32,000 bases of DNA from Clostridiales bacterium (GTDB lineage: Bacteria; Bacillota; Clostridia; Christensenellales; Aristaeellaceae), in assembly GCA_015056175.1 (NCBI GenBank), contig SVGT01000013.1, forward strand, positions 6,984-38,983. Direction: 5' to 3'. The position numbers and the translations under genes are program-made. The notes beneath the pieces were generated by a model, which did not search any database, had not been told where the DNA came from, and saw nothing but the letters and a program-made list of their open reading frames with translations. Below, one piece after another: positions 10,638-32,000 of the stretch (its first letter is position 1; the number at the start of each line of letters is the position of its first letter).

Positions 10638-12009
10638 TGACGGGACGGGCGGGCGCATCGCACTTGTGGCAGGCCAGCAGGTTTTTGAAGGTGGTATTGT
10701 TGATATCGGAGAAGTAGAAGGCCTTGAGTGGCAGATATTCCTCCGCAACGGAGTAGCAATCCTCCTTGGCGTGGTAGTACAACCCGCCGTCGGGATTGTA
10801 ATACAGCAGCATATTGGCGGACATGGTGGGCGCTTCCGTAGGCGCCTGGGTGGGCACGAAGGGAATGGTGCCCGCCTCCTGATCGCCGGGCTGGGGCGTG
10901 GTCTGCATCTTGGTGGCGCCCAGGGAGTTGGGATCCACATACCAGGTATCGTTGATGCGCAGCATGAGCACCTGCATCTGGTAATAGGCAGGCTCGCTGG
11001 TGTTCTTTTTGTCAATGAGCACGGTGAGGGTCACGGTGCGGGAGGTATCGGCCTCGCTCCCCGAGATCTTTTCCACGGTGTAGCTCATGGGGGTGCGGTT
11101 GGCCAGGAGGATGAACAGCTCGGACTTGGGATTTTCCAAATTATTCACCCAGGAGGGCAGGCACAACTCCAGCATGGAATCCAGCTGGCTTTCGGCCCAG
11201 TAGTTCATGAAGGTATTCAGGCGCATGGAGGCCATGGAGGCGTCCGGGGAATCCGTGGCGGAAATTTCGGGCACGGAATCCTGGGGGGTATCGTCCGTCT
11301 GGGGGTTCTGGGCGGATACGGAGTTCAGGGCGCTGTCGCCGCCAAAGAGGGCGGAGGCGTCCACATTGCCGGAGGCCGCGAGGCTGTCCCGGGCGGGCAG
11401 GGAAAAGAGCAGCGCCACGGCGATGACCACCAGCAGCGCGCCGTAGATCAGCGCCAGGGTGTAGCGGGCGTTTTTGCTGAAGGGACGGGCAAAGAGCAGA
11501 ATGCCGATGACCGCAAGGGCGCAGGCGATGAACACGCCGTGGAGCACCACATTGCCCATCAAAAGCGCCAGCAGGAACAAAACGGGCAGCGCCAGTGTGA
11601 CCACGGCGATGAGCCAGTTATAGCTCTTGCGGCGGGCGGGCTGCTGTACCTGCTGCTGCGACTGCGCCTGGGAGGTAAAGTGCTGCTGATAGGGCTGCTG
11701 GGGCGCAGGGTTTGCAAACTGCTGCTGGTAGGGGTTCTGGTAGGGCGGCGTCTGGTACGGCTGCCCGTAGGGCTGCTGATAGGGCTGCTGGGGGGCAGGA
11801 TTTGCAAACTGCTGCCCGTATTGCTGCTGCTGGGGATATTGCTGCTGGGGCGCTTGCCCGTATTGCTGCTGCTGCATCTGAGGCGCGTTTTGCGCCTGGG
11901 TCTGCGGCTGCCGGGGCTGCTGGGGCGCGCTTTTTTGCAGGGGTTTATTTTTTAGTCCGTACAGCGGGGCGCTGGTATAGCGGTTGCGGTTGGAGCTCAC
12001 AAAAGTCAT
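10624..12009 (-). CDS. membrane protein with a Q/P/Y-rich repetitive N-terminus and an extracytoplasmic C-terminal domain
   Basis: Starts at the ATG at 12009 (a GTG at 12000 is also possible). Low-complexity QQPYQQ repeats are followed by 3-4 TM helices (NWLIAVVTLALPVLFLLALLMG...) and then a globular C-terminus ending in a CHKC motif. Confidence 0.7.
   Translation of the reverse strand: MTFVSSNRNRYTSAPLYGLKNKPLQKSAPQQPRQPQTQAQNAPQMQQQQYGQAPQQQYPQQQQYGQQFANPAPQQPYQQPYGQPYQTPPYQNPYQQQFANPAPQQPYQQHFTSQAQSQQQVQQPARRKSYNWLIAVVTLALPVLFLLALLMGNVVLHGVFIACALAVIGILLFARPFSKNARYTLALIYGALLVVIAVALLFSLPARDSLAASGNVDASALFGGDSALNSVSAQNPQTDDTPQDSVPEISATDSPDASMASMRLNTFMNYWAESQLDSMLELCLPSWVNNLENPKSELFILLANRTPMSYTVEKISGSEADTSRTVTLTVLIDKKNTSEPAYYQMQVLMLRINDTWYVDPNSLGATKMQTTPQPGDQEAGTIPFVPTQAPTEAPTMSANMLLYYNPDGGLYYHAKEDCYSVAEEYLPLKAFYFSDINNTTFKNLLACHKCDAPARPVITGN
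11683..11815 (-). repeat. intragenic direct repeat (43-nt units, 90-nt period)
   Basis: 11683-11725 and 11773-11815 match at 41/43 nt. Both encode QQFANPAPQQPYQQ on the minus strand. Confidence 0.8.
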
Positions 12010-12316: not shown

Positions 12317-13750
12317 ATGTCGGAACGGACAAAGGCGCAGGGCAGGTTTAACAAATGGCTCTGCGGACTGTTTGACAGTGAGATGTTTACCACCAAGGAA
12401 CTGCTGGGCATGTTTTTTCCCCTTTTGCTGGACCAGTTCTCCATCCACATTATCGGCGTTTTATCCTCCTCGCTGGTCTCCTCGGTAGGCCAGGAAGCCA
12501 TCGCTGCCGTCAGCATGGTGAACTCCATGGGCTTTCTGGTGACGGCCGTCATGTTCGCTCTGGGCGCGGGCGGCGGCGTGGTGATCGCCCAGGCCAAGGG
12601 CAGCGGCGATGAAAAACGGCTGCGCCATGCCGTGGGCAATACCACCATGCTGGCCACCGGCTGCATGCTGGTGCTCTCTACGCTGCTGTACACGTTTGCA
12701 GAGCCTGTGGTGGGGATCATCTACCCCAACGCCGAGCCCATCCTGAAGGAATACGCGGTGCACTACCTGAAGCTGAACATGCTCTCCCAGGTGCCCTACG
12801 CCGTGTTCCACGCCATTTTTACCTCCTTCCGCAGCGTGGGCGACAGCAAATCCTCCCTGGTGCTGACCATCTTCATCAACGTGAGCCATCTGCTTTTGTC
12901 CCTTTTGTTCATCAACGTGCTGGGCATGGGCGTGACGGGCTCCGGGCTTTCGCTGATCGTGGCCCGCTCCATCGGCTGCGTGGTGGCCCTGATCTGGATC
13001 TTCCGTCCCCGGGGCTACCTGCACATTTCCGTGCACGACTTTTTCAAGTGGGATTTGTCCACGGTGAAGCCCATTGTGAAGCTGGGCATTCCCTTCTGCA
13101 TTGAGCAGATTTTGTTCCAGGGCGGCATGCTGATGGTGCAGGGGTATCTCAGCTCCTGGGGCGATACGCCGCAGATGGGCACCATGGCCCTGGCGGCTCA
13201 CGCCGTGGCCTCCTCCCTGATGAACCTGTACCAGGCCAGCGCCAACTGCGTGACCACCATGACGGGCACGGTGTGCGGCCAGTGCATCGGCGCAGGCAAA
13301 ATTGAGCTGTGCAAGCGCTACAACCGCAGCATGATCAAGGGCGGCAGACTGGTGCTGCTCATCACCGTGCTGGTGCTCTTCCCGCTTTCTCCCCTGCTGC
13401 TCAAGCTCTACCACCCCAATCCCGACGCCATGGGCATCATCTACAGCATTCTGGCGGTGGCCGTGCTGCCCATGCCCATCGTGTGGTGCAACGCCTTTGT
13501 GACCCCCACCATGCTGCGCAGCGCAGGCGACGTAAAGTACACCACCTACGTATCGCTGCTGGTGATGGTGATCGGCCGCGTGGTGCTGGGCTACATCTTC
13601 ACCATTGTGTTCAACCTGGGCCCTGTGGGCGTGTGGCTGGGTATGCTGGTGGAATGGCTCATCCGCGTGGTGCTGATGGAAAAGCGCTTCAAGAGCGGAA
13701 AATGGACCGCCTTCATCGAGGAAAAATACAGGCAAAAGCCCGCAGGCTAA
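12317..13750 (+). CDS. MATE family efflux transporter (paralog 1)
   Basis: 477 aa with about 12 TM helices. MATE-like blocks are present (PLLLDQFSIHIIGVLSSSLVSSVGQEAIAAVSMVN, ...VGVWLGMLVEWLIRVV). RBS AAGGAAGG. Confidence 0.9.
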   Translation: MSERTKAQGRFNKWLCGLFDSEMFTTKELLGMFFPLLLDQFSIHIIGVLSSSLVSSVGQEAIAAVSMVNSMGFLVTAVMFALGAGGGVVIAQAKGSGDEKRLRHAVGNTTMLATGCMLVLSTLLYTFAEPVVGIIYPNAEPILKEYAVHYLKLNMLSQVPYAVFHAIFTSFRSVGDSKSSLVLTIFINVSHLLLSLLFINVLGMGVTGSGLSLIVARSIGCVVALIWIFRPRGYLHISVHDFFKWDLSTVKPIVKLGIPFCIEQILFQGGMLMVQGYLSSWGDTPQMGTMALAAHAVASSLMNLYQASANCVTTMTGTVCGQCIGAGKIELCKRYNRSMIKGGRLVLLITVLVLFPLSPLLLKLYHPNPDAMGIIYSILAVAVLPMPIVWCNAFVTPTMLRSAGDVKYTTYVSLLVMVIGRVVLGYIFTIVFNLGPVGVWLGMLVEWLIRVVLMEKRFKSGKWTAFIEEKYRQKPAG

Positions 13751-13879: not shown

Positions 13880-13915
13880 GGAACTTGCACAATATGATGG
13901 AGGATGAGATTTTTT

Positions 13916-15349
13916 ATGTCCGAACTGACGCCTGCGCGCGGCCCCAGGGGTAAATTCAACGGCTGGCTTCACCGCCTGTTTGACAGCGAAATGTTTACGA
14001 CCGGGGACATCCTGCGCATGTTTTATCCGCTGATGCTGGATCAGTTTGCCATTCACCTGATCATGACGCTGAGTACGTCGCTGGTGTCCTCGGTGGGTCA
14101 GGAGGCGCTGGCTGCCGTCAGCATGGTGAACACCCTTTCCTATGTGGTGACGGCCGTGATGTTTGCCCTCAGTGCGGGCGGCGGCGTGATCATCGCCCAG
14201 GCCAAGGGCAGCGGCGATGAGGACAGGCTGCACAAGGCCATTGCCACCACGGCCATGATCTCCTCTGCCGTGATGCTGGTTTTGTCCATCACGCTGACGG
14301 CGTTGGCAGGGCCTATCATTGAGCTTTTGTATCCCCACGCAGAGCCGCTGCTCAAGGAATACGCCGTGCACTATATGCGCCTGAACATGCTCACCCTCTG
14401 GCCCTTCTCCATTTTCCACGTGATCTTTACCGCCTTCCGCAGCGTGGGCGACAGCAAATCCTCCCTGATTCTGACGCTGTACATCAATATCAGCCATCTG
14501 CTTTTGTCCCTTCTGTTCATCAACGTGCTGGGCATGGGCGTGACGGGCTCCGGGCTTTCGCTGATCGTGGCCCGCGTCATCGGCGCCATTGTGGCCATGG
14601 TGTGGCTCTTTGGCCCCATGGGCAAGCTGCACATGAAGCCCCGGGCGTTTCTGAAGCTGGATAAAAAGATGGCAAGGCCCATCCTGCGCCTGAGCATTCC
14701 CTTCTGCGCAGAGCAGATGCTCTTTGAAGGCGGCATGGTGGTGGTGCAGGGGTACCTGAGCACCTGGGGCGATACCCCCGAAATGAGCACCATGGCGCTG
14801 GCGGCCCATGCGGTGGCCTCCTCGCTGGTCAGCCTGTATCAGGCCACCGGCTACTGCATCACCCAGATGACCAGCACGGTGTGCGGCCAGTGCATCGGCG
14901 CGGAGAAGATCGACCTGTGCAAGCGGTACAACCAAAGCATCATCAAGGGCGGCAATCTGATCTACCTGATCACGGTGCTGGTTTTGTTCCCCCTGACGCC
15001 GCTGCTGATGAAGCTGTACAACCCCAACCCCGACGCGCTGGGCATGATCTACGTGATGCTGATGGTGGGCGTGTTCCCCATGCCGCTGATCTGGTGCAAA
15101 TCCTTTGTCACCTCCACCACCATGTGCGCCGCAGGCGACGTGAAATTTGCCACCTACGTATCCTTTGTGGTGATGCTCATCGGCCGCATGGCGCTGGGCT
15201 ATGTGCTGACCATCACGCTGAACCTGGGCCCGGTGGGCATCTTTATCGGCATGCTGGTGGAATGGCTGTTGCGCATCCCGGCGGTGGAATGGCGCTACAG
15301 ATCGGGCAAGTGGCTGAACTTCCTCAAGCAGGAAAAGGCGGCCGGTTAA
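13916..15349 (+). CDS. MATE family efflux transporter (paralog 2)
   Basis: Start refined to 13916 (MSELTPARG..FNGWL aligns with MSERTKAQGRFNKWL of paralog 1). It is collinear with paralog 1 over its whole length. Confidence 0.9.
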   Translation: MSELTPARGPRGKFNGWLHRLFDSEMFTTGDILRMFYPLMLDQFAIHLIMTLSTSLVSSVGQEALAAVSMVNTLSYVVTAVMFALSAGGGVIIAQAKGSGDEDRLHKAIATTAMISSAVMLVLSITLTALAGPIIELLYPHAEPLLKEYAVHYMRLNMLTLWPFSIFHVIFTAFRSVGDSKSSLILTLYINISHLLLSLLFINVLGMGVTGSGLSLIVARVIGAIVAMVWLFGPMGKLHMKPRAFLKLDKKMARPILRLSIPFCAEQMLFEGGMVVVQGYLSTWGDTPEMSTMALAAHAVASSLVSLYQATGYCITQMTSTVCGQCIGAEKIDLCKRYNQSIIKGGNLIYLITVLVLFPLTPLLMKLYNPNPDALGMIYVMLMVGVFPMPLIWCKSFVTSTTMCAAGDVKFATYVSFVVMLIGRMALGYVLTITLNLGPVGIFIGMLVEWLLRIPAVEWRYRSGKWLNFLKQEKAAG

Positions 15350-16244: not shown

Positions 16245-17267
16245 TCAGGCCTTCAGGCCGTTGATATGGATAAATTTCTCAAACTCGGGCAAAATGCCCA
16301 CGCCGTCCGGGTAATGGGCGGCAAACTGAGGAATGGCGTGGCTGGGGAAGGAATTGCCCTCGATGAACACGGGGCCGTCTGTCGTGATGGCCACGTCCCA
16401 GGCCACAAAGCGCACCTGGGGCACCTTGTGCATGGCCTCCAGGCACATCTCCCTGGCCTCCTGCCAGTAGGGGATCTCAAAGCCCACGATGGGCGTGCCG
16501 GTCATGGGATGGGTATCAAACACGTTGCCCTGCTTATCGGCGGCCACGGTCTTGAGCACGCCGGAAGCCAGATCCACCCGGGCGGCCATGCCGCCGCAGT
16601 CCACATTATCCATCACCTTGCCGTTGCCGATGCGGATGAAGGCGTACACGATGCCCTCCTGCTTGTCGCCAAGCAGCGTGGCGATGCGGATGGTATTGAC
16701 CGAGGTGGGGCAGAGGGAGGCCATTTTGGGATGCTGGACGACCAGCTCCTCCAGAATGCCGTCGCCCATCGAAACAAGCTGATCGCGGAAGGCGTCCACA
16801 TGCTGCCAGTCATCCTTTGTAAACTTCACAATGCCCTGACCGGAAGAGCCTTCCAGCGGCTTATAGAGGATCACGTCATGACGGCTGAGGAAGGCGGCAA
16901 GCTCATCCGCAGCGGTATCCGCCGTCATTTTCATCCAATCCCGGCGCACCTGCGCGGCAAAGAGCGTGTTGAACTCCGTTTTATCGTCAAAATGATGCCA
17001 GTAGGCCTTATCGTTCATGTTTTTGACGATGCGGTTGGAAATGCCGCGGGTGATCACCGTGCGCTTCTGGGCGTCGCTGAGCCTATACATCTCGGCGATC
17101 TTATAATCCACGTAGCCCGCGTTATAGCGAAGGGCGCAGTTCAGCATGTCCTTCAGCAGCCAGGCCGTGCTTTTGCCCGTCTTTTTGTGCAGCATGCGGG
17201 CGGTCTGCAGCATGCGCTTCCAGTCCATTTTGGCGGCGCGCTTGGCAAGATAGGAAAGTTTGGACAT
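16245..17267 (-). CDS. ATP-grasp enzyme of the sugar-transfer-associated type (ATPgrasp_ST-like)
   Basis: 340 aa. The N-terminus AKRAAKMDWKRMLQTARMLHKKTGKS..LLKDMLNCALRYNAGYVDYKIAEMY and the block SSGQGI...TIRIATL are as I recall for Pfam PF14397. RBS GAGGTG. Confidence 0.75.
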   Translation of the reverse strand: MSKLSYLAKRAAKMDWKRMLQTARMLHKKTGKSTAWLLKDMLNCALRYNAGYVDYKIAEMYRLSDAQKRTVITRGISNRIVKNMNDKAYWHHFDDKTEFNTLFAAQVRRDWMKMTADTAADELAAFLSRHDVILYKPLEGSSGQGIVKFTKDDWQHVDAFRDQLVSMGDGILEELVVQHPKMASLCPTSVNTIRIATLLGDKQEGIVYAFIRIGNGKVMDNVDCGGMAARVDLASGVLKTVAADKQGNVFDTHPMTGTPIVGFEIPYWQEAREMCLEAMHKVPQVRFVAWDVAITTDGPVFIEGNSFPSHAIPQFAAHYPDGVGILPEFEKFIHINGLKA

Positions 17268-17312
17268 GATTTAGTCACCTCTGACGGAGGAAGTTTGATG
17301 GCGTGGGGACTT

Positions 17313-17971
17313 GGGGCTGTCCGCCCCAAACCCCGACCAGGAGGCTGAGCCTCCTGGACCTGCAGTGTTGGACGGACAAGCGTTATCATCCGGATTGCTT
17401 CCCAATGCGGCGGGCACTGTAGGGCGGGGGCTTGCATGCCTTTTTTGTTTGGGAAAAATGAGCGGATTTGTTGGGACATGTTGGAGCGATCCGCCGTTTT
17501 TTCCGTTTACGGAAAAAACGGGAACTTCATCGGCCAAGACCGTGAGAGAATGCATTCTCTCCACGGCTTGGATCGATGAAGGAGGCGCAGACGCGCAAAG
17601 CGCGTCCTGCCCCGGCGGATCGCCGCAGCGATGAATGTTGTTTTCAGATAAAAACAAGGGGACTGGTTGCGATTATAACAACAAGAAATAAGCGGAGCGG
17701 CAGCGGGAAGCTGACAGGAAATGTGTACAACCATGTCCGCTGCTGTGGGTGCAGGGGAACGGAGCCGAAGCGCGCCCTGGCCGGGCGGATCGCCGTAACG
17801 ATGAGTAGGGTTGGGGTATCTTCTCTACTGTTTTATCGGGAAATAGTATGAAATATCTTGTACCTGTGTCCGAAACGGTGGGTCAAGGGTGCTCAGCACC
17901 CTTGTAGGGGTCCAGGGGGCAACGCCCCCGGAAGTCCCTGCCGGGGGGGTGTGGGGCTGAGAAAGCCCCAC
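17313..17971. repeat. copy A of an ORF-free, hairpin-dense intergenic element of about 650 nt (unclassified; structured RNA or MITE-like)
   Basis: It shares ordered blocks with 29821-30461: 43/43 nt (17336-17378), 19/19 nt (17417-17435), 58/60 nt (17472-17531) and the right-end block (17933-17971). It has many perfect hairpins and no RBS-preceded ORF. Confidence 0.75.
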
Positions 17972-18023: not shown

Positions 18024-19121
18024 TTACACGTTGAAGCGGAACAGGGTGATATCGCCGTCCTGCATGACGTATTCCTTGCCTTCGGAGCGGATGAGGCCCT
18101 TTTCGCGGCAGGCGGCCATGCTGCCCAGCTCGTGCAGCGTATCAAAGGGCACGATCTCGGCGCGGATGAAGCCCCGTTCAAAATCGGTATGGATCTTGCC
18201 TGCGGCCTGGGGCGCCTTGGTGCCGCGGGTGATGGTCCAGGCGCGGCACTCGTCTTCGCCTGCGGTGAGGAAGGAGATGAGGCCCAGCAGCTTGTAGCAG
18301 GCCTTGACCAGACGGTCCAGACCGCTTTCGCCAATGCCCAGATCCTCCAGGAACATGGCCTTTTCATCGCCCTCCATCTGGGCGATCTCCTCCTCGATCT
18401 GGGCGGAGATGACCAGCACCTGAGCGCCTTCTGCATCGGCGGCGGCACGCACCTTGCCGACGAAGGGGTTGTTTTCTTCGGGCTCTGCCACCATATCTTC
18501 TGCGATATTGGCGGCGTAGATCACGGGCTTGGTGGTGAGCAGGAACCAGCCGCGGATGGTTTCCTGTTCTTCCTCATTGCAGGGGAAGGTGCGGCCGGGC
18601 TTGCCTTCTTCCAGATGGGTGAGCAGGCGCTGGGCCAGCTCCGCCTCGATCTGGTACTTTTTATCGCCGGTCTTGATCATCTTCTGGGCCTTTTCCATGC
18701 GCTTCTGCACGCTTTCCATATCGGCGAAGATGAGCTCCAGATTGATGGTTTCCATATCGCGGGCGGGATCGATGGAGCCGTCCACGTGGATGATGTTTTC
18801 ATCCTCAAAGCAGCGCACCACATGCACGATGGCGTCCACCTCGCGGATATGGGAGAGGAACTTGTTGCCCAGACCCTCGCCCCGGCTGGCGCCCTTCACC
18901 AGACCTGCAATATCCACAAATTCGATGACCGCGGGGGTCACCTTCTTAGGATGGTACATTTCATCCAGAACATGCAGCCTTTCATCCGGCACAGGCACGA
19001 TGCCCGTGTTGGGCTCGATGGTGCAGAAGGGATAGTTGGCCGCCTGGGCGCCCGCGCCGGTGATGGCGTTGAACAGCGTGCTTTTGCCCACGTTGGGCAG
19101 ACCTACGACGCCTAATTTCAT
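18024..19121 (-). CDS. ychF: redox-regulated/ribosome-binding ATPase YchF
   Basis: Start refined to 19121. Reads MKLGVVGLPNVGKSTLFNAIT...ANYPFCTIEPN...VDIAGLVKGAS...TAGEDECRAWT...FIRAE, and is full-length and canonical. Confidence 0.95.
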   Translation of the reverse strand: MKLGVVGLPNVGKSTLFNAITGAGAQAANYPFCTIEPNTGIVPVPDERLHVLDEMYHPKKVTPAVIEFVDIAGLVKGASRGEGLGNKFLSHIREVDAIVHVVRCFEDENIIHVDGSIDPARDMETINLELIFADMESVQKRMEKAQKMIKTGDKKYQIEAELAQRLLTHLEEGKPGRTFPCNEEEQETIRGWFLLTTKPVIYAANIAEDMVAEPEENNPFVGKVRAAADAEGAQVLVISAQIEEEIAQMEGDEKAMFLEDLGIGESGLDRLVKACYKLLGLISFLTAGEDECRAWTITRGTKAPQAAGKIHTDFERGFIRAEIVPFDTLHELGSMAACREKGLIRSEGKEYVMQDGDITLFRFNV

Positions 19122-21694: not shown

Positions 21695-22777
21695 ATGGAA
21701 TATTTGGTTTCAGAATATCTCGCATCCGAGACCATAGACCCACTTTTCTTGGTGGGAGATGCTCTTGATGTATTAAAAAATATTCCAGATAACAGCATTG
21801 ATTGTTGTATAACAAGTCCTCCTTATTGGAACAAGAGACAATATGCAAATGGCGGAATAGGTCTGGAAAAGGATTACAATGACTATATTTCCGCACTTGT
21901 TGAAATATTTATGGAAGTACACCGAGTATTAAAACCAACTGGTTCTTTCTGGCTCAATATTGGCGATACTTACCACAAAAAATCATTGCTCAATATTCCT
22001 TGGAGAGTTGCAATTGAATTGACTGACCGAGGGTGGATTCTTCGTAATACTGTCATATGGAACAAAGTAAAAGGCGGTTTAGATAATACTGAAGACCGTT
22101 TAAGAAACATCTATGAACCTGTTTTTCATTTCGTAAAAAAAGCAAAGGGATATTATTACGATATTGACAGTGTAAGAAACACACCGCAAAGCACAAAGGT
22201 TGTAAAAGGTGCAGTGGTCTCTGCGACAGGGGTTACGGGTGTTAGCTACAAAAGAAAAATAGAGTTATCAACTGTGCTGACAGATGAGCAAAAGAAGAAT
22301 GCTTATGCAGCACTTGAGGATATGCTGGAAAAGGTCCGTCTTGGCGAAGTGTCAGATTTTAGAATGATAATCAAAGGAGCTCAGCGAACCACTCATTCTG
22401 ATTCTGAAAAGGTTTCCGGTCGTGCAAAGGAACTGCATGAAAAAGGATTCTATTTCTTAAAGTGCAATCCTAAAGGGAGCAAACCCTCCGATGTTTGGGA
22501 TATACTGCCAGAAGATACTCAAAAGCGAACCACTCATTTTGCACCTTATCCAGAAGATTTGTGCCGAACACCAATTATACTTACCTGTCCCAAAGATGGT
22601 GTTGTACTTGACCCATTTGCAGGAACAGGAACCTCTTGTTTGGTTGCATTAGAATACAACAGAAAATCAATCGGCATAGAAATCGCAGATGAATATGTGG
22701 TAGCTGCCAAAGAAAGATGCCAAAAGAAGGTGGAAGATTATGAGCAAAGTCAAAGAACTATTTGGGATTTATTGTAG
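21695..22777 (+). CDS. type II DNA methyltransferase, beta class (N4-cytosine or N6-adenine; SPPY favours m4C)
   Basis: Motif IV is DCCITSPPYWN near the N-terminus and motif I is VLDPFAGTGTSCLVA near the C-terminus (IV before I, so beta order; Pfam N6_N4_Mtase-like). RBS AGGAGG. The DNA is AT-rich. Confidence 0.9.
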   Translation: MEYLVSEYLASETIDPLFLVGDALDVLKNIPDNSIDCCITSPPYWNKRQYANGGIGLEKDYNDYISALVEIFMEVHRVLKPTGSFWLNIGDTYHKKSLLNIPWRVAIELTDRGWILRNTVIWNKVKGGLDNTEDRLRNIYEPVFHFVKKAKGYYYDIDSVRNTPQSTKVVKGAVVSATGVTGVSYKRKIELSTVLTDEQKKNAYAALEDMLEKVRLGEVSDFRMIIKGAQRTTHSDSEKVSGRAKELHEKGFYFLKCNPKGSKPSDVWDILPEDTQKRTTHFAPYPEDLCRTPIILTCPKDGVVLDPFAGTGTSCLVALEYNRKSIGIEIADEYVVAAKERCQKKVEDYEQSQRTIWDLL

Positions 22778-23576
22778 TGAAAATGCAAATGTGACTGGTG
22801 CTCTCGCCTCTCAAATCTGTCCATACTCAAATAAAAAGTGCTATAAAACGAGAAAAAGTGACCCCGATACTGCAATAGGCACTTGTACTGTTTCGTATCA
22901 AAACAAAGACATTATTATCTGTCCTAATCGTTTAACGGAAAACAGTCAAATATTTATGGATTGCATCCATCTCCTCACATTGCACGAACCAGGCAATGAA
23001 CTCTATGTTCTCCCCGAAATTTCAATTCCTGGTGGCAATGTTGACTATTTCCTTGTTTCTGTGAAAGATGGCAAGGTAAAAGATTTCATTGGAATTGAAC
23101 TGCAGACCATGGATACAACAGGCACAGTTTGGCCTGAAAGACAGAAACTGCTTAATGAATACGGCATTGCCGTTGATGAAGCAGATGTTAGAAACACAAA
23201 GTCTTTCGGAATGAACTGGAAAATGACTGCAAAGACCATTCTGATTCAGATGCACCACAAGACAAAAACATTTGAGAATTTGAACAAGCATCTTGTTCTG
23301 ATTATTCAGAAACCGTTTTTTGAATACATGAACAGAGAGTTTTCGTTCGCTCACATAACCGGTGCCAGAATTGGAGACTCCGCACATTTCCATTCTTATG
23401 ATTTTAAGAATATTGGTAATAGATTAAAACTGACCTTGGACACCAGAGTAAGTACAGATTCTGATGGTATTTTTCAATGTCTCGGTCTTAATGCCGAAGC
23501 AAACGTTGCACTCGAAGATATAATTGCAACTCTTGAGAAAAAACTAAGTGAAGAGTATCTGCTCAGACTGCAATAA
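22740..23576 (+). CDS. type II restriction endonuclease, NotI-family-like
   Basis: It overlaps the methyltransferase gene by 38 nt and has RBS GGTGGA 5 nt upstream. The N-terminal Cys cluster is ICPYSNKKCYK...GTCTV...ICPNRL and the block IGIELQTMDTTG follows. These resemble the CPF..C.K..GVC..CPNR and LEIQTMDFHG blocks I recall from NotI. Confidence 0.7.
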   Translation: MSKVKELFGIYCSENANVTGALASQICPYSNKKCYKTRKSDPDTAIGTCTVSYQNKDIIICPNRLTENSQIFMDCIHLLTLHEPGNELYVLPEISIPGGNVDYFLVSVKDGKVKDFIGIELQTMDTTGTVWPERQKLLNEYGIAVDEADVRNTKSFGMNWKMTAKTILIQMHHKTKTFENLNKHLVLIIQKPFFEYMNREFSFAHITGARIGDSAHFHSYDFKNIGNRLKLTLDTRVSTDSDGIFQCLGLNAEANVALEDIIATLEKKLSEEYLLRLQ

Positions 23577-25671: not shown

Positions 25672-26298
25672 ATGGCTCGAAAATGCCATAACGGCTGCGG
25701 ATATGCATGCGGCGGCTTTGTGCCGTGGAACGGCTGCGGGAATACCTGTGGGAATACGTGTGGGAATACCTGCGGGAATACTTGCGCAAATACCTGTGTC
25801 AACGGCTGCACGGAGGCTTTCCGGTTTGATCAGAATTGTCCCTTTCAGGGCAGCTGTCCCTATCCCATGACCTTTGAGGAAATGCTGCAGCTGCTCCGCA
25901 CGCTGCGCTACGGACGGCTTGCGGTGTGCGCAAACGGCCAGAGCTACGTGACGCCGGTGTGCTTTTCCATGCGCCGGTGCGAGGATACGCCCATCTTTAC
26001 TTTGCGGCTGCGCACGGACGGCTGCATCGCCGGACATCTGGAAAACGGCACCCAGGTCACCTTGCAGTTTGACCGGATGGTGAACGGCGGCGTGTGCACC
26101 GTGCAGGCTATGGGTCAGGCTTATGTGACGGGCAGCACGGGGTGCGTGGCCATTGTGGAGGTACGCACGGACAGCATGATGGGCGAGTGCTACCGCAATC
26201 AGGGCTGCGGAAACAACTGCGGCAACAATTGCGGGAACAACTGCGGGAACAATTGCGGCAATAACTGCGGAAATCCCTGCGAAAACCCCTGCAAGTAA
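25672..26298 (+). CDS. pyridoxamine-5'-phosphate-oxidase-like (split-barrel flavoprotein) domain protein flanked by CGNx Cys-rich repeats
   Basis: The N-terminus reads GCGNTCGNTCGNTCGNTCANTCVNGC and the C-terminus GCGNNCGNNCGNNCGNNCGNNCGNPCENPCK. The core (MTFEEMLQLLRTLRYGRLAVCANGQSYVTPVCF...VTLQFD...) resembles the Pyridox_ox_2/PNPOx-like fold. Confidence 0.7.
   Translation: MARKCHNGCGYACGGFVPWNGCGNTCGNTCGNTCGNTCANTCVNGCTEAFRFDQNCPFQGSCPYPMTFEEMLQLLRTLRYGRLAVCANGQSYVTPVCFSMRRCEDTPIFTLRLRTDGCIAGHLENGTQVTLQFDRMVNGGVCTVQAMGQAYVTGSTGCVAIVEVRTDSMMGECYRNQGCGNNCGNNCGNNCGNNCGNNCGNPCENPCK
25746..25820 (+). repeat. 12-nt periodic coding repeat (CGNT x ~6)
   Basis: The units are tgcgggaatacc / tgtgggaatacg / tgtgggaatacc / tgcgggaatact / tgcgcaaatacc / tgtgtcaacggc. 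The differences among the first four (CGNT) units are all synonymous; the last two degenerate to CANT and CVNG. Confidence 0.85.
26206..26292 (+). repeat. 12-nt periodic coding repeat (CGNN x 5, then CGNP and CENP)
   Basis: The units are tgcggaaacaac / tgcggcaacaat / tgcgggaacaac / tgcgggaacaat / tgcggcaataac / tgcggaaatccc / tgcgaaaacccc. Confidence 0.85.
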
Positions 26299-28565: not shown

Positions 28566-29750
28566 TCACTCCCAGTGCGCTTTGGTTTTGTGCATGTGAT
28601 CCAGCACGAACTGTACAAACATTTCGGCGCCGTAGTGCAGACCGCTTTCGTCGATCTGCCACAGCGGGGAATGGGCGGGGTATTTGCAGCCCGTTTCTTC
28701 GTTGCGCAGGCCCAGGCCGAACAGCAGGCCCGGCTTGTGCTTTTCATAATAGGCAAAGTCCTCGCCGCCGGGAGAGGGCTCCAGCACGGCGACCTTGTCC
28801 GTCACCTTGGCGGCGGATTCAAGGAACATATCGTACATCTTGCTGTCGTTATAGGCGGGGGGCAGGGGATCCTGGGCGAAGGTCACTTCGCCCGTGCCGC
28901 CCATGTCGTCACAGACACTTTTCACCAGACGGCGGATGCGCTCCTGCATTTGATCGCGGGTGGATTCCTTGAGGCAGCGCATGGAGCCGCGCATGTGGCA
29001 AAAATCCGGCACCTGGGCGATGGTCTTGCCGCTTTCCATCACGCCCACGCCCAGCACGCAGGTATCAAAGGGGTCTACCTCCCGGCTGATGAGGAACTGC
29101 AGCCCGTCGTAGATCCTGACGCCCATGGCCAGGGCGTCCTTGCCCAGATGGGGCGCTGCCACATGGGCGGCCTCGCCGTGGGTCGTGATCTCAAAGGCGC
29201 AGGAGGTGGCGTTGGTGATGCCGCTGCAGGAATTGATGACGCCGGTCTTTTCCACGCAGTTGACGTGGCACATGATGATGCAGTCGATATCGTCCATCAC
29301 GCCGTGCTTGCACATCACCTGTGCGCCGGAGGGCTTGTTTTCCTCGCAGGGCTGGAACACCAGCCGCACGCGGCAGGCCAGCTTGTCCTCGATTTCCTTC
29401 AGCGCCTTGGCGGCGCCCAGCAGCATGGCGGTGTGGGCGTCGTGACCGCAGGCGTGCATCTGGCCGTCGATCTTCGAGCGGAAGGGCAGGCCGTTTTCCG
29501 CCTCCTGGATGGGCAGCGCGTCCATATCCGCACGGATGCCGATGGTGAAAGCGGCGTCCTGCCTGCCCAGGGTGGCGACCACGGTGTTGCGGCCGTATTT
29601 TTCAAAATCATAGGAAATGCCCAGCTTGTCCATCTCGCGGCGGACAAGGGCGCTGGTTTTGTCCAGATCCCAGCCGAGCTCCGGGTACATGTGCAGCTCC
29701 CGGCGGAGGGCAACAATATAGTCCTGATCGACCTTGAAAGGAATGTGCAT
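28566..29750 (-). CDS. M20/M20D family amidohydrolase (N-acyl-amino-acid/hippurate-hydrolase type)
   Basis: Start refined to 29750 (AGGAGG, 5 nt, ATG). LRRELHMYPELGW...IGIRADMDALPI...HACGHDAHTAMLLGAA...VFQPCEE...HSPLW are the typical M20D blocks. Confidence 0.9.
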   Translation of the reverse strand: MHIPFKVDQDYIVALRRELHMYPELGWDLDKTSALVRREMDKLGISYDFEKYGRNTVVATLGRQDAAFTIGIRADMDALPIQEAENGLPFRSKIDGQMHACGHDAHTAMLLGAAKALKEIEDKLACRVRLVFQPCEENKPSGAQVMCKHGVMDDIDCIIMCHVNCVEKTGVINSCSGITNATSCAFEITTHGEAAHVAAPHLGKDALAMGVRIYDGLQFLISREVDPFDTCVLGVGVMESGKTIAQVPDFCHMRGSMRCLKESTRDQMQERIRRLVKSVCDDMGGTGEVTFAQDPLPPAYNDSKMYDMFLESAAKVTDKVAVLEPSPGGEDFAYYEKHKPGLLFGLGLRNEETGCKYPAHSPLWQIDESGLHYGAEMFVQFVLDHMHKTKAHWE

Positions 29751-29813: not shown

Positions 29814-29820
29814 GCCTTGC

Positions 29821-30461
29821 GGGGGCGTTGCCCCCTGCACCCCTACCAGGAGGCTGAGCCTCCTGGACCTGCAGTGTTGGACGGACAGGTCTGATCGATT
29901 GAGATGTTTCCCAATGGGACAATACGGGGAAACGGAATGAAAAATGAAGGAATGAAGCGTGCCATGCGGCACATGAAGCACGTTCCTTTAGAACGCGTTG
30001 CGGCTTTACAGCCGCTGTAGGGCGGGGGCTTGCTCCCGCCACTTTGTTTGGGAAAAGCCAATGGGTTGAGTGGGACATGTTTGAGCGATCCGCAGTTTTT
30101 TCCGTTTACGGAAAAAACGGGAACTTCATCACCAAGAGCAGGAGCAAATGAATTTGCTTCCTGCCTTGGTTGATGAAGGAGGCCAGACGCGCAAAGCGCG
30201 CCCTGGCCCGGCGGATCGCCGTATCGATGAGTAGGGTCTCTTTCCGGCAACAGTGTTTCACGGGGAAAATGCATGTGGAACGGTGTACCTGTGTCCCGAA
30301 TGGCGGGTGCAGGGGGACGGAGCCGAAGCGCCGCCGGTGGCGGATACAGCGAGGCGGAGGAGTCAACCGAAACGAGCGATCGACCGGCAGGGAGAGCGCG
30401 ACGATTGAGGTTGCGGAAATCAGTACCCTGCCTGGGGGTAGTGGGGGCAAGGAGCCCCCAC
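29821..30461. repeat. copy B of the ORF-free, hairpin-dense element of about 650 nt
   Basis: It has the same block order and orientation as 17313-17971, with identical 43-mer 29845-29887, 19-mer 30015-30033, 60-nt block 30071-30130 and right-end block 30422-30461. It carries an extra segment of about 90 nt (29917-30014). Confidence 0.75.
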
Positions 30462-30492
30462 AAAAAAACCCCGCCTTCCGAAGAAGACGGGG
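30462..30492 (-). terminator. rho-independent terminator of the ROK gene
   Basis: On the minus strand: CCCCGTCTTC-ttcg-GAAGGCGGGG followed by T7, directly abutting the right end of repeat copy B. Confidence 0.8.
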
Positions 30493-30515
30493 TGAAAATA
30501 CCGCTTGAGGATGAA

Positions 30516-31898
30516 TTAGCCGATGGCGGGCAGGGAGGCAGCAGCCACGCTCTGGCCCACGCGGCGGGACTTTTCGTCCGGGATGTGCAGCTTGCACTTT
30601 GCAGCCAGCTCGGGGAATTCGGCGTCCAGAACTTCCTGAGCCTTCTTCAACAGCAGCGCGCCGCCTTCGCCGGAGGTCACGCGGCCCATGATGAGCACGT
30701 GGTCGATATCATAGAAGCGGCTGTAGTAGGCGATGGCATAGCCGAAGTACACGCCGATGGATTCGTAGATCTTGGCGGCTTCGGGGTTGCCGGCGATCAT
30801 TTCCTTCTGCACGACCTTCAGCTTTTCGGCGGGGGAGAGGCTCTCATCCAGCTGGATACCGGCAGCGGGAGCCAGCTTGATGACGGCGTCCTGAGAGAAG
30901 TACTTCACGCCGCAGCCGTAGTCGCCGGACCATTCGTCCACCATGGCGTTCTTGCAGGCGTCAACGGGGGCGAAGGCCAGTTCGTTCAGCCAGCCGGTGA
31001 TGTTCATGTCCTTGTCCACGAAGCCGGCAGCTTCGGAGGTACCCATGGCCACGCCCAGCACATTGCCGCATTCCAGATCCATAGCGCCGGCCAGAGCGGT
31101 CACGTCGCCGTCGTTGGCCACTTCGATCGGGATGTTTTCGCCGATTTCCTTGGCCACGTCGATGTACATGTTCTTGACCTTCTTGTCAAAGTCTTCCTTG
31201 CCCACCTTCAGGAACAGGGAAGCCACCATGATGCGGTTGTCAATGTACACGCCGGCGGAGGATACGCCGATGGCGTCCACGCGGGGCATATGGGAGGCAG
31301 CGGTCTTCATGGCGTCCAGGATGCCCTGGTAGTGATAGTCGGGATCGGACTGGGTCTTGGGGAACCAGACCACTTCTTCGCTGTACACGCTTTCGCCGTT
31401 GATCACAGCGCTGACCTTGCGGTCGGATCCGCCGGCGTCAAAGCCGATGCGGCAGCCGTCCAGATGACGGCCCACGGAGGAAGCGGCCTCGCGCTTGACG
31501 GAGATGCACTTGGGGCAGGCAGCTTCCAGCACTTCGAAGGGCTTTTCGTACACGGTGGACATGAAATCGGCGTCAAAGTAGCGGGAGCCGCCTTCGGCAT
31601 AAGCAGCCTTCAGGTGCTCGTACACGGCCTTGGAGCCGGCCACGGTGATCTTGTAGCCGCCGCGGGACCACAGCATGGTCTTGATCAGACGGTCCAGCAG
31701 GTCCACGGTGCGCTCGGTTTCCACGCCGTCGGGCAGGATCTGCATGCGGTAGTAGTCGCAGTAGCCCTGGTTACGTTCCACGTTCACGCAGAAGTCCACC
31801 TTTTCGGGGGCGGCGGCCACGTCCTTTTCATACTCGCGCAGCACAACGCTCATGGGCATAAACTGAGGATCGAGCGGGGCCTTCACTTTGAGTTCCAT
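30516..31898 (-). CDS. ROK family sugar kinase-like protein with an N-terminal extension
   Basis: IGFDAGGSDRKV (phosphate-1), AIGVSSAGVY, ANDGDVTALAG and GVAMGTSEAAGF are ROK/ASKHA blocks. RBS GGAGGG. Confidence 0.85.
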   Translation of the reverse strand: MELKVKAPLDPQFMPMSVVLREYEKDVAAAPEKVDFCVNVERNQGYCDYYRMQILPDGVETERTVDLLDRLIKTMLWSRGGYKITVAGSKAVYEHLKAAYAEGGSRYFDADFMSTVYEKPFEVLEAACPKCISVKREAASSVGRHLDGCRIGFDAGGSDRKVSAVINGESVYSEEVVWFPKTQSDPDYHYQGILDAMKTAASHMPRVDAIGVSSAGVYIDNRIMVASLFLKVGKEDFDKKVKNMYIDVAKEIGENIPIEVANDGDVTALAGAMDLECGNVLGVAMGTSEAAGFVDKDMNITGWLNELAFAPVDACKNAMVDEWSGDYGCGVKYFSQDAVIKLAPAAGIQLDESLSPAEKLKVVQKEMIAGNPEAAKIYESIGVYFGYAIAYYSRFYDIDHVLIMGRVTSGEGGALLLKKAQEVLDAEFPELAAKCKLHIPDEKSRRVGQSVAAASLPAIG

Positions 31899-31935: not shown

Positions 31936-32000
31936 TTACTTTTCAAACTTGCACACGCCGCGGACGAAGGTCTTGATGACCTGGCAGTCTTCATCCATGA
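31936..32000 (-). CDS. 3' end of an unidentified CDS entering from the right edge
   Basis: The minus strand reads ...MDEDCQVIKTFVRGVCKFEK-TAA (stop at 31938-31936). Only 21 codons are visible, so no family call is possible. Confidence 0.3.
   Translation of the reverse strand, partial: MDEDCQVIKTFVRGVCKFEK

Follow-up and report, generated by a model that had tools for sequence, protein, structure and literature searches.

A covarying hairpin pair forms part of a candidate mosaic palindromic repeat family in a Clostridiales lineage

Two intergenic elements and their hairpins

The window analysed here is a stretch of 32,000 nucleotides from a Clostridiales bacterium (assembly GCA_015056175.1, contig SVGT01000013.1, positions 6,984 to 38,983). 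It holds two similar intergenic elements, A and B, each of which contains a long hairpin, H2, at [17525-17581] in A and at [30124-30178] in B. The window is the reverse complement of the JGI contig Ga0318466_10015655 (49,993 bp, hereafter the 50-kb source contig), and its ATP-grasp protein is identical to E7326_05075 of the NCBI metagenome-assembled genome (MAG) "Clostridiales bacterium". The intergenic regions that hold A and B lie between minus-strand genes and are unusually long, 756 and 766 nt. Over their whole length, they show an extreme degree of structure on each of the two strands (z -7 to -10). Element A, which comprises segment [17306-17945], fills the gap between ychF and the gene of the ATP-grasp protein. 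The ychF gene (18024-19121, minus strand) encodes a ribosome-binding ATPase with the Pfam domains MMR_HSR1 and YchF-GTPase_C and is located upstream of the element on the gene strand, while the ATP-grasp (ATPgrasp_ST) gene (16245-17267, minus strand) is located downstream. Element B, which comprises segment [29816-30463], has a ROK-like gene upstream (30516-31898, minus strand) and an M20 peptidase gene downstream (28566-29750, minus strand; converted from L008:12149-13333). The ROK-like gene ends in a canonical intrinsic terminator (30468-30493, minus strand), which consists of an 11-bp stem and the run TTTTTTT and stands just outside element B.

Hairpin H2 of copy A reads CTTCATC-g-GCCAAG-a-CCGTGAGAGAAT-gc-ATTCTCTC(C)ACGG-CTTGG-atc-GATGAAG, and that of copy B reads CTTCATC-ACCAAG-a-GCAGGAGCAAAT-ga-ATTTGCT(T)CCTGC-CTTGGT-t-GATGAAG. 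An original prediction, made from the letters of the window, had described the pair as a hairpin domain conserved in shape but not in sequence. When the sequences are read directly, the outer helix CTTCATC/GATGAAG and the helix CCAAG/CTTGG are indeed common to A and B, and each copy has a 12-bp inner helix with one bulged pyrimidine on its 3' arm. The divergence of the inner arms had been overstated, as A and B differ at 5 of 12 positions per arm and not at most of them. All five differences are compensated, each of them being a double change from one Watson-Crick (WC) pair to another. When H2 is folded as DNA, the minimum free energy (MFE) is about -20.6 to -20.9 kcal/mol for each strand of A and of B. 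Dinucleotide-preserving shuffles (n = 200) reach about -5.5 to -6, which corresponds to z -7.2 to -8.0, and none of the 200 is as good.

The cloverleaf and the covariation of its copies

The 57-nt hairpin, which had been taken for a self-contained domain, is one arm of a larger structure. This structure is a cloverleaf of 142 nt, a four-way junction in which a closing inverted repeat of 9-10 bp, GCGATCCGC(C)/(G)GCGGATCGC, encloses three hairpins, H1, H2 and H3; the cloverleaf is in turn a module of a mosaic repeat of 650-800 bp. In copy A, the 5' arm of the closing repeat, GCGATCCGCC, at [17486-17495], pairs with the 3' arm, GGCGGATCGC, at [17614-17623]. H1, GTTTTTTCCG-TTTA-CGGAAAAAAC, occupies [17496-17519], and H3, GCAGACGCGC-AAA-GCGCGT(C)CTGC, occupies [17587-17610]. 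In copy B, the closing arms GCGATCCGC at [30085-30093] and GCGGATCGC at [30211-30219] pair with each other, H1 corresponds to [30095-30118], and H3, CCAGACGCGC-AAA-GCGCGC(C)CTGG, corresponds to [30183-30206]. Between A and B, the stem of H3 shows one G-C to C-G swap (GCAG/CTGC versus CCAG/CTGG), in agreement with the prediction, and an inner A-T of copy B has turned into A-C. H2 is the long and fast-changing arm. Each full copy, folded alone, adopts the same four-way junction as its MFE structure on both strands.

A tRNA or tmRNA identity of the cloverleaf was rejected. So was an integron attC site: the closing arms read GCGATCCGC/GCGGATCGC and not the R''/R' core sites (RYYYAAC ... GTTRRRY), there is no integrase, and the surroundings are not a cassette array but housekeeping genes that related strains keep in the same order. 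A scan of the window against Rfam 15 at gathering thresholds gave no match, and permissive scans of both regions gave chance-level matches alone, far below threshold.

The source-genome DNA that was read amounts to about 52 kb, made of the 50-kb source contig and the 1.5-kb contig of locus L020. It has four loci of the repeat (A, B, L008:1487-2330 and L020), three of which have the cloverleaf. Loci A and B are identical across two samples. Further copies were obtained by two routes. A protein-database search with the spurious minus-strand open reading frames (ORFs) that run across the element led to the proteins P0001-P0005 and, from these, to loci L020-L023, of which L020 belongs to the same MAG as the source (E7326_01285). 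The second route started from homologs of the flanking ATP-grasp protein and went to the contigs on which they are encoded. With six cloverleaf cores as input, a covariance model added one further copy, L022:1876-2001. A HMMER search of 1.84 billion protein representatives matched 3 proteins in all, two or three of which are spurious-ORF relatives beyond the seed sequences. At the DNA level, an exact 20-mer (H1 and junction) had 4 matches in 185,579 GTDB species genomes, all of them chance matches in coding or unrelated DNA. The pattern GGGAACTTCATC-N30-60-GATGAAGGAG had 10 matches in JGI metagenome contigs, all in coding DNA, and did not match the source contig itself. The pattern GGCGGATCGCCGYANCGATGA had one chance match in viral contigs, inside a coding region, and element A had no blastn match in plasmids and phages.

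Covariation was assessed in two alignments. RNAalifold, run on a plain MAFFT alignment of six copies, reported 54 pairs, with 14 compensatory and one one-sided change. In a model-based alignment of eight related copies, which is fitted to the structure, 97.0% of the pair cells are paired versus 88.2% in shuffles. In this alignment, 17 of the 54 pairs have changed on both sides (7.9 in shuffles) and 34 cells have changed on both sides (10.7 in shuffles), values that none of 500 shuffles reached. Controls in which the partners were slid had at most 5 pairs changed on both sides. With pairing in 97% of the cells and double changes in 17 of the 54 pairs, beyond the shuffles, conservation of the fold over the eight copies is supported. 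Homologs that had lost the complementarity of the arms, which would have made the pairing of A and B a coincidence, were looked for, and the pairing is kept in six further copies.

Most of the double changes are found in H2, where helices 3 and 4 have them at 14 of 24 pairs, that is, 14 of all 17. The closing helix (helix 1) is 100% paired and has one G-C to C-G swap, which is present in both L022 copies. H1 (helix 2) has two pairs with double changes (G-C to A-T and C-G to T-A) and a co-inserted base pair in 6 of the 8 copies. The census of pairs is 380 WC pairs, 3 G-T pairs and 12 mismatches. One-sided changes (GC to GU) are almost absent. On either strand there are 0 to 3 G-T pairs per copy, and the contig-truncated copy L022:9169 reaches 6 on the minus strand. 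The two strands of the cloverleaf fold with near-equal energy.

H2 changes much faster than the scaffold around it. A and B are 96% identical over the 84 positions outside H2 and 75% identical within it; B and L021 are 95% identical outside and 54% inside, with 10 WC-to-WC double changes. Between copies with scaffolds that are 95-98% identical, the identity of H2 is 54-76%, and nearly all differences are WC-to-WC. About three types of H2 can be told apart, and they do not track the similarity of the scaffolds. This turnover suggests either an exchange of cassettes at the conserved outer helix or a role of H2 as carrier of specificity. The bulged pyrimidine of A and B was considered as a feature of the family and rejected, since in L022:9169-9263 and in L038 a purine (A and G, respectively) is bulged on the 5' arm.

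The possibility that the hairpins belong to a small protein, encoded on a minus-strand frame that is open in both elements, is extremely remote. The two ORFs, 17271-17657 and 29843-30463 (both on the minus strand), do share the frame and are 58% identical. However, the ORFs across the element have no Pfam match, their relatives in the databases are spurious ORFs over the same repeat with shifted or inverted frames, and the source annotation has no gene call here. Furthermore, where A and B differ, the change on one side of the hairpin is matched by one on the other, with no bias to synonymous changes. The original prediction had concluded that a nucleic-acid fold, and not a peptide, is kept. 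This holds, as complementarity survives sequence change in eight copies and no peptide is involved; selection on a transcript does not follow from these data.

A second explanation is that the cloverleaf is a structured non-coding RNA, either a multi-copy small RNA or an element of an untranslated region, in which H2 possibly bears the specificity and the surrounding repeats are incidental. We regard it as unlikely, while acknowledging that several of the observations above are in its favor. The covariation is strong and concentrated in the stems, the whole regions have a fold of very high stability (z -7 to -10), the junction GGGAA between H1 and H2 shows fair conservation (column identity 0.82), and H2 outpaces the scaffold in change, as a specificity element would. 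The pairs themselves are less easily explained by this reading, as there are virtually no G-U pairs and no asymmetry between the strands. The pattern of conservation also differs. The most conserved positions of the cloverleaf are in the stems of the closing helix, H1 and H3 (column identity 0.96-0.98), while the H1 loop (0.57) and the unpaired internal positions of H2 (0.58) are the lowest; the loop of H3 is invariant in the five copies with an alignable H3. That stems stand above loops is mostly the opposite of the usual pattern of structured RNAs. No Rfam family reaches threshold, and no sigma-70-like promoter or terminator was found bracketing the cloverleaf. The behavior of the copies in the genome, described below, bears on the same question.

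Mosaic modules, inversion and decay

Elements A and B are built of modules. Element A is bounded by imperfect inverted terminal modules, each a double hairpin; the size of these modules is 65-80 nt. The left one [17306-17385, plus strand] consists of the hairpin GGGGC..GCCCC followed by CCCCGAC-CAGGAGGC-TGA-GCCTCCTG-GACC. The right one [17861-17945, minus strand] is inverted relative to it and has the stem AAGGGTGC/GCACCCTT, which covaries with that of the left copy. Element B starts with the same type of module [29816-29895, plus strand], has its modules in the order of A plus an extra module of 120 nt, and has a degenerate right end. The terminal inverted repeats align as 17306-17373 versus 17868-17938 (69% over 71 nt) and as 17868-17934 versus 29816-29882 (81% over 67 nt). 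The general pattern is CCCC(G/T)AC, a stem of 7-8 bp with a loop of 3-4 nt that is mostly TGA, and GACC, with GTAG or GTCG beside the hairpin. In the window, L008, L021, L022, L024, L025 and L038, the second hairpin has 7 different stems of 7-8 bp, all perfectly complementary. These stems add to the cloverleaf another, independent example of compensatory change within these elements.

Between the ends there are three further kinds of modules. A palindrome of 24 nt, GTAGGGCGGGGGCTTGCTCCCGCC, similar to the REPs (repetitive extragenic palindromic sequences) of other bacteria, is found at [30017-30040, plus strand] and also in L008, L020, L021 and L022. It reads GTAG-GGCGGG-GGCTTGCT-CCCGCC, is followed by ACTTTGTTTG, and resembles a terminator of the plus strand. 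A degenerate form of it, GTAGGGCGGGGGCTTGCATGCC, followed by a T-rich run, is found in element A at [17419-17440, plus strand]. The REP-like unit begins exactly at GTAG in 8 of 8 distinct copies, with variable bases preceding it, while the cloverleaf itself has no GTAG tag and is far larger than a REP. The extra hairpin-rich module of 120 nt [29896-30015, plus strand] is present in L008:2126-2236 and in L021 and absent from A. The module modX (GGGTGCAGGGGGACGGAGCCGAAGCGCCGCCGGTGGCGG...), at [30301-30425, plus strand], is also found in L008, L020, L022 and L023, in either orientation relative to the cloverleaf. In element A, the start of modX is fused to a second cloverleaf 3' end (CCTGGCCGGGCGGATCGCCGTAACGATGAGTAGGG) at [17747-17810, plus strand]. 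This belongs with a partial internal duplication, by which the cloverleaf 3' end (CCTGGCCGGGCGGATCGCCGTAACGATGA) of [17598-17634] is found again at [17768-17804], 170 nt downstream; B does not have it. A third mosaic element, L008:1487-2330, is located just past window position 32000. It has no cloverleaf. Its parts are a terminal module, an inverted modX, the 120-nt module and three REP-like units with GTAG, of which two are within a tandem duplication of about 122 nt, in the opposite orientation. Overall, the order and the orientation of the modules differ among A, B, L008, L020, L021, L022 and L023.

The cloverleaf of L020 is on the strand opposite to that of its neighbors, namely the REP-like unit, the 5' flank (GGGACATGTTTGA) and modX, all three of which share one strand. 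When L020 is compared with B, this flip has its breakpoints exactly at the closing repeat GCGATCCGC/GCGGATCGC. An ORF spanning both junctions of L020 is also present on a 139,877-bp contig of the MAG, and the 9-bp closing repeat is too short to mislead an assembler. The loop of H2 is TGAA in B and its reverse complement, TTCA, in L020; a nested inversion of H2 alone was considered and rejected. Three proteins translated from spurious ORFs, P0002, P0006 and P0007, which belong to one 90% cluster, have in common either the upstream flank or the downstream flank of a B-type cloverleaf, with a change of partner at the H2 loop. Copies may have recombined with one another, as this pattern suggests, or the assembly may have been joined wrongly (a chimera) through the repeat that they share. 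As a separate observation, L020:600-640 and L022:1275-1300 share ttccttgccatc...GGGGTATAATAAAGTG, a segment similar to an extended -10 promoter, directly before the downstream gene; judged by this sequence, L020 and L022 are probably one locus in two related genomes.

A flip bounded by inverted repeats is what a phase-variable inverton would produce, in which a site-specific recombinase turns the 125-bp interior between the 9-10 bp repeats and thereby switches the expression of the neighboring genes. The inversion of the L020 interior coincides exactly with the inverted repeats and leaves both flanks as they are, and P0006 and P0007 hint at further exchanges of flanks at the cloverleaf. We nevertheless consider this explanation very improbable. 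No single locus was seen in both orientations, A and B being identical in two samples, and the 50-kb source contig has no recombinase gene. The interior consists of hairpins alone, and no promoter-like site was found inside the cloverleaf. Moreover, the unit exists in several copies and is part of a mosaic repeat, and a single inversion between short inverted repeats can also arise by template switching during replication.

The A locus was compared among related strains. Four other contigs (L024, L025, L036 and L038) keep the gene order AP-endonuclease, ychF, ATP-grasp, PG-binding and MatE. In L038 the cloverleaf is complete but strongly diverged: its H2 is a different one, its H3 is shorter, and the changes in its H1 are compensated. 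In L024, the closing repeat surrounds 29 nt and nothing more of the cloverleaf is present, and in L025 just GCGATCATCGC is left, which corresponds to a deletion inside the palindrome. L036, in which the ATP-grasp protein is 84% identical to that of the window, has at 512-800 a different repeat made of tandem copies of about 118 nt (GGAAGTGACGAACGTCACAGATGGCATGCTGATATTCTGCATCATGTCGTGGGACGG...). The site between ychF and the ATP-grasp gene seems to be a hot spot for repeats. In contigs L026-L035, from bovine rumen metagenomes and with 77% amino acid identity, the two genes are 16 nt apart; this short gap in relatives indicates that element A is an insertion into a conserved gene pair.

The orientation of the cloverleaf also varies. 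In A, B and L021 it runs antisense to the neighboring genes, while the two copies of L022 have it in sense orientation; in L023, it is inverted relative to modX. These comparisons complete the case on the structured RNA. The REP-like unit upstream of the cloverleaf resembles a plus-strand terminator, so a separate transcript of the cloverleaf could start behind it. On the other hand, the cloverleaf is flipped relative to its immediate flanks in L020, takes either orientation relative to genes and modules, and is truncated or deleted at the same locus in related strains whose ychF-ATPgrasp order is intact. Probing of transcripts had been proposed as a check on the fold. With pairs that are almost all WC, strands that fold equally, copies that are flipped, truncated or deleted, and both gene orientations, the covariation does not show selection on a transcript.

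The palindromes could also be kept by the host as transcription or mRNA elements, that is, as terminators, 3'-end stabilizers or attenuators. Their position is always between genes, the REP-like unit with its T-run resembles a terminator, and element A separates genes that are adjacent, and probably co-transcribed, in relatives. In other bacteria, the bacterial interspersed mosaic elements (BIMEs) and BOX repeats influence the expression of co-transcribed genes (PMC3049150). A conserved host function of this kind is improbable here, as the orientation relative to the genes is inconstant, the ROK-like gene has its own canonical terminator outside B, and the elements are partly or wholly absent from the same locus in related strains. 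A cis-regulatory leader or riboswitch is not indicated either, since the downstream genes (ATP-grasp, M20 peptidase and others) are unrelated and the orientation is variable.

The Pfam-annotated genes of the 50-kb source contig include no transposase or recombinase, Y1_Tnp included. Other features of the window are listed here as observations in their own right. Genes for a NotI-like restriction endonuclease and an N6/N4 DNA methyltransferase (both by Pfam) are located at about 21695-23576, between the two elements. Two MATE/MurJ-like transporter genes, at 12317-13750 and 13904-15349, are tandem paralogs with 74-77% nucleotide identity over 300-nt stretches and a spacing of 1608. Of the short in-frame tandem repeats, one with a period of 12 nt (GGAATACCTGTG-like) forms blocks at 25727-25798 and 26210-26281, 447 nt apart, and a set with repeats of 39-75 nt, rich in CTGCTG/GGGCTG and found at 11679-11928, probably represents low-complexity protein repeats.

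Interpretation and likeness to known systems

We propose, with a probability of about 55%, that A and B belong to a lineage-specific, non-coding, multi-copy mosaic intergenic repeat of 650-800 bp, similar to BIMEs (clusters of REP units), BOX elements or MITEs (miniature transposable elements with inverted repeats), in which H2 is the variable arm of the cloverleaf module. The repeat family belongs to one lineage of uncultured rumen or gut Clostridiales, the E7326_ MAG and its close relatives. A palindrome acting as DNA fits the data at least as well as an RNA, and it is favored because of the WC-only pairing, the lack of strand asymmetry, the flip, the decay, the variable orientation and the mosaicism.

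According to this proposal, the units would act or persist at the level of DNA. The arms might stay complementary through a need to fold as single-stranded DNA or as a cruciform, and the folded form would then be recognized by a hypothetical hairpin-specific enzyme, for example an HUH/Y1 transposase (of the RAYT or IS200-like type). Alternatively, a hairpin-templated correction (quasipalindrome correction, by template switch) could transfer a change from one arm to its partner. Both routes would give a direct replacement of one WC pair by another without G-T intermediates. The dynamics of palindromes might also produce the flip of the cloverleaf at its closing repeat, the internal deletions and the exchange of H2 variants between copies, and template switching could account for the H2 loop of L020, TTCA, being the reverse complement of TGAA in B. 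Effects on flanking transcripts, such as termination, stabilization or attenuation, would be a by-product.

Several points weigh against the mosaic DNA repeat as we propose it. A stem made of WC pairs throughout is also compatible with an RNA. The covariation comes from just eight copies, which are mutually related and were aligned with a model fitted to the structure, and just four loci of the source genome were sampled, three of them with the cloverleaf. The family is rare in public data, with no true match in the genome, metagenome, viral, plasmid and phage scans. A clean empty site or a target-site duplication is not definable, as the site with the 16-nt gap (L026-L035) is too diverged for boundaries to be placed. 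The 50-kb source contig is without a transposase or recombinase, which makes mobility and the enzyme conjectural. Finally, H2 is far more diverged than the rest of the cloverleaf, which simple decay does not predict and which could mark a specificity of H2. This last point leads to a rather speculative alternative, which we give a small probability, namely that the 142-nt cloverleaf is itself the functional unit, either a new structured RNA or a folded-DNA site for a hairpin- or junction-specific enzyme. The conserved scaffold (closing repeat, H1 and H3) would then be the handle, H2 would confer specificity, and the flip would be part of the mechanism, similar to that of a flip/flop hairpin or a minimal inverton.

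Two copies that differ by clean compensatory changes do give real evidence for a conserved fold, yet this is not by itself proof of a functional RNA. Here, the same covariation signal comes from a family of palindromic DNA repeats that flips, shrinks and reshuffles. If our proposal of a mosaic DNA repeat is true, an uncultured rumen Clostridiales lineage would have a REP/BIME- or BOX-like mosaic family with GTAG units, and this family would have split the conserved ychF-ATPgrasp gene pair. The fast and strictly complementary turnover of H2 in a near-invariant scaffold is the one feature that possibly points to something more specific.

Among known systems, phase-variable invertons of the fimS type share with the cloverleaf the short inverted repeats around a segment that is inverted in one copy. 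They differ in that the cloverleaf has no internal promoter, no adjacent recombinase and no locus in both states, and is multi-copy. The flip/flop terminal hairpins of parvoviruses, the T-shaped inverted terminal repeats, are the ends of linear single-stranded DNA genomes and are made by hairpin-primed replication. By analogy, the cloverleaf may be compared with them in having small palindromes inside a longer one and an interior found in two inverted configurations relative to its flanks. However, it is an internal chromosomal sequence with no replication protein nearby, and one flipped copy was seen. Template-switch mutagenesis of quasipalindromes accounts for the copying between arms, the WC-to-WC changes, the flips of the loop and the inversion at short repeats (see PMC7202029 for the mechanism). 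It is a mutational process and not a class of elements, and the existence and the spread of the family are not explained by it.

Pneumococcal BOX elements (boxA-boxB(n)-boxC) are composite, tightly folded and variable in their content of modules (PMC3049150). With these and with other structured MITE-like repeats (RUP, Correia and ERIC), the elements described here share the modularity, the tight folding, the inverted ends, the gain and loss of modules from strain to strain and the position between or beside genes (PMC3049150). They differ in that there is no sequence similarity, that they are G+C-rich and not AT-rich, and that a target-site duplication and a cognate insertion sequence were not identified in the loci studied here. 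Furthermore, descriptions of BOX do not include an internal four-way junction that has one fast-changing arm. The elements are like MITEs in being small, non-coding and multi-copy, with at least four loci in one MAG, and in having terminal inverted repeats, of which the right end of B is degenerate.

A GTAG at one end is the hallmark of REPs (PMC3733652), which are often associated with RAYT transposases (PMC3733652, PMC2817692). GTAG repeats have been reported in Proteobacteria, Cyanobacteria, Chloroflexi and PVC (PMC3733652); a search of the text of that report found no mention of Firmicutes. The elements described here differ from REPs and BIMEs, including the REPIN doublets mobilized by the Y1/HUH transposase RAYT, in the larger size of their units (142 nt for the cloverleaf, 65-80 nt for the double-hairpin ends and 650-800 bp for the elements), in their host, which is a Clostridiales lineage, and in the lack of a RAYT gene among the Pfam-annotated genes of the 50-kb source contig. 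REPs and BIMEs often exceed 100 copies per genome, and a RAYT gene (IS200/IS605-like Y1 transposase) is typically flanked by the repeats; the about 52 kb of source genome read here have four loci. They share with REPs and BIMEs the nature of extragenic, non-coding, G+C-rich imperfect palindromes of variable order and orientation. The 24-nt REP-like unit falls within the size of a short palindrome (20-40 bp), and one module starts with GTAG (PMC3733652, PMC2817692). Inverted terminal modules, and hairpins kept by compensatory change, are likewise common to both.

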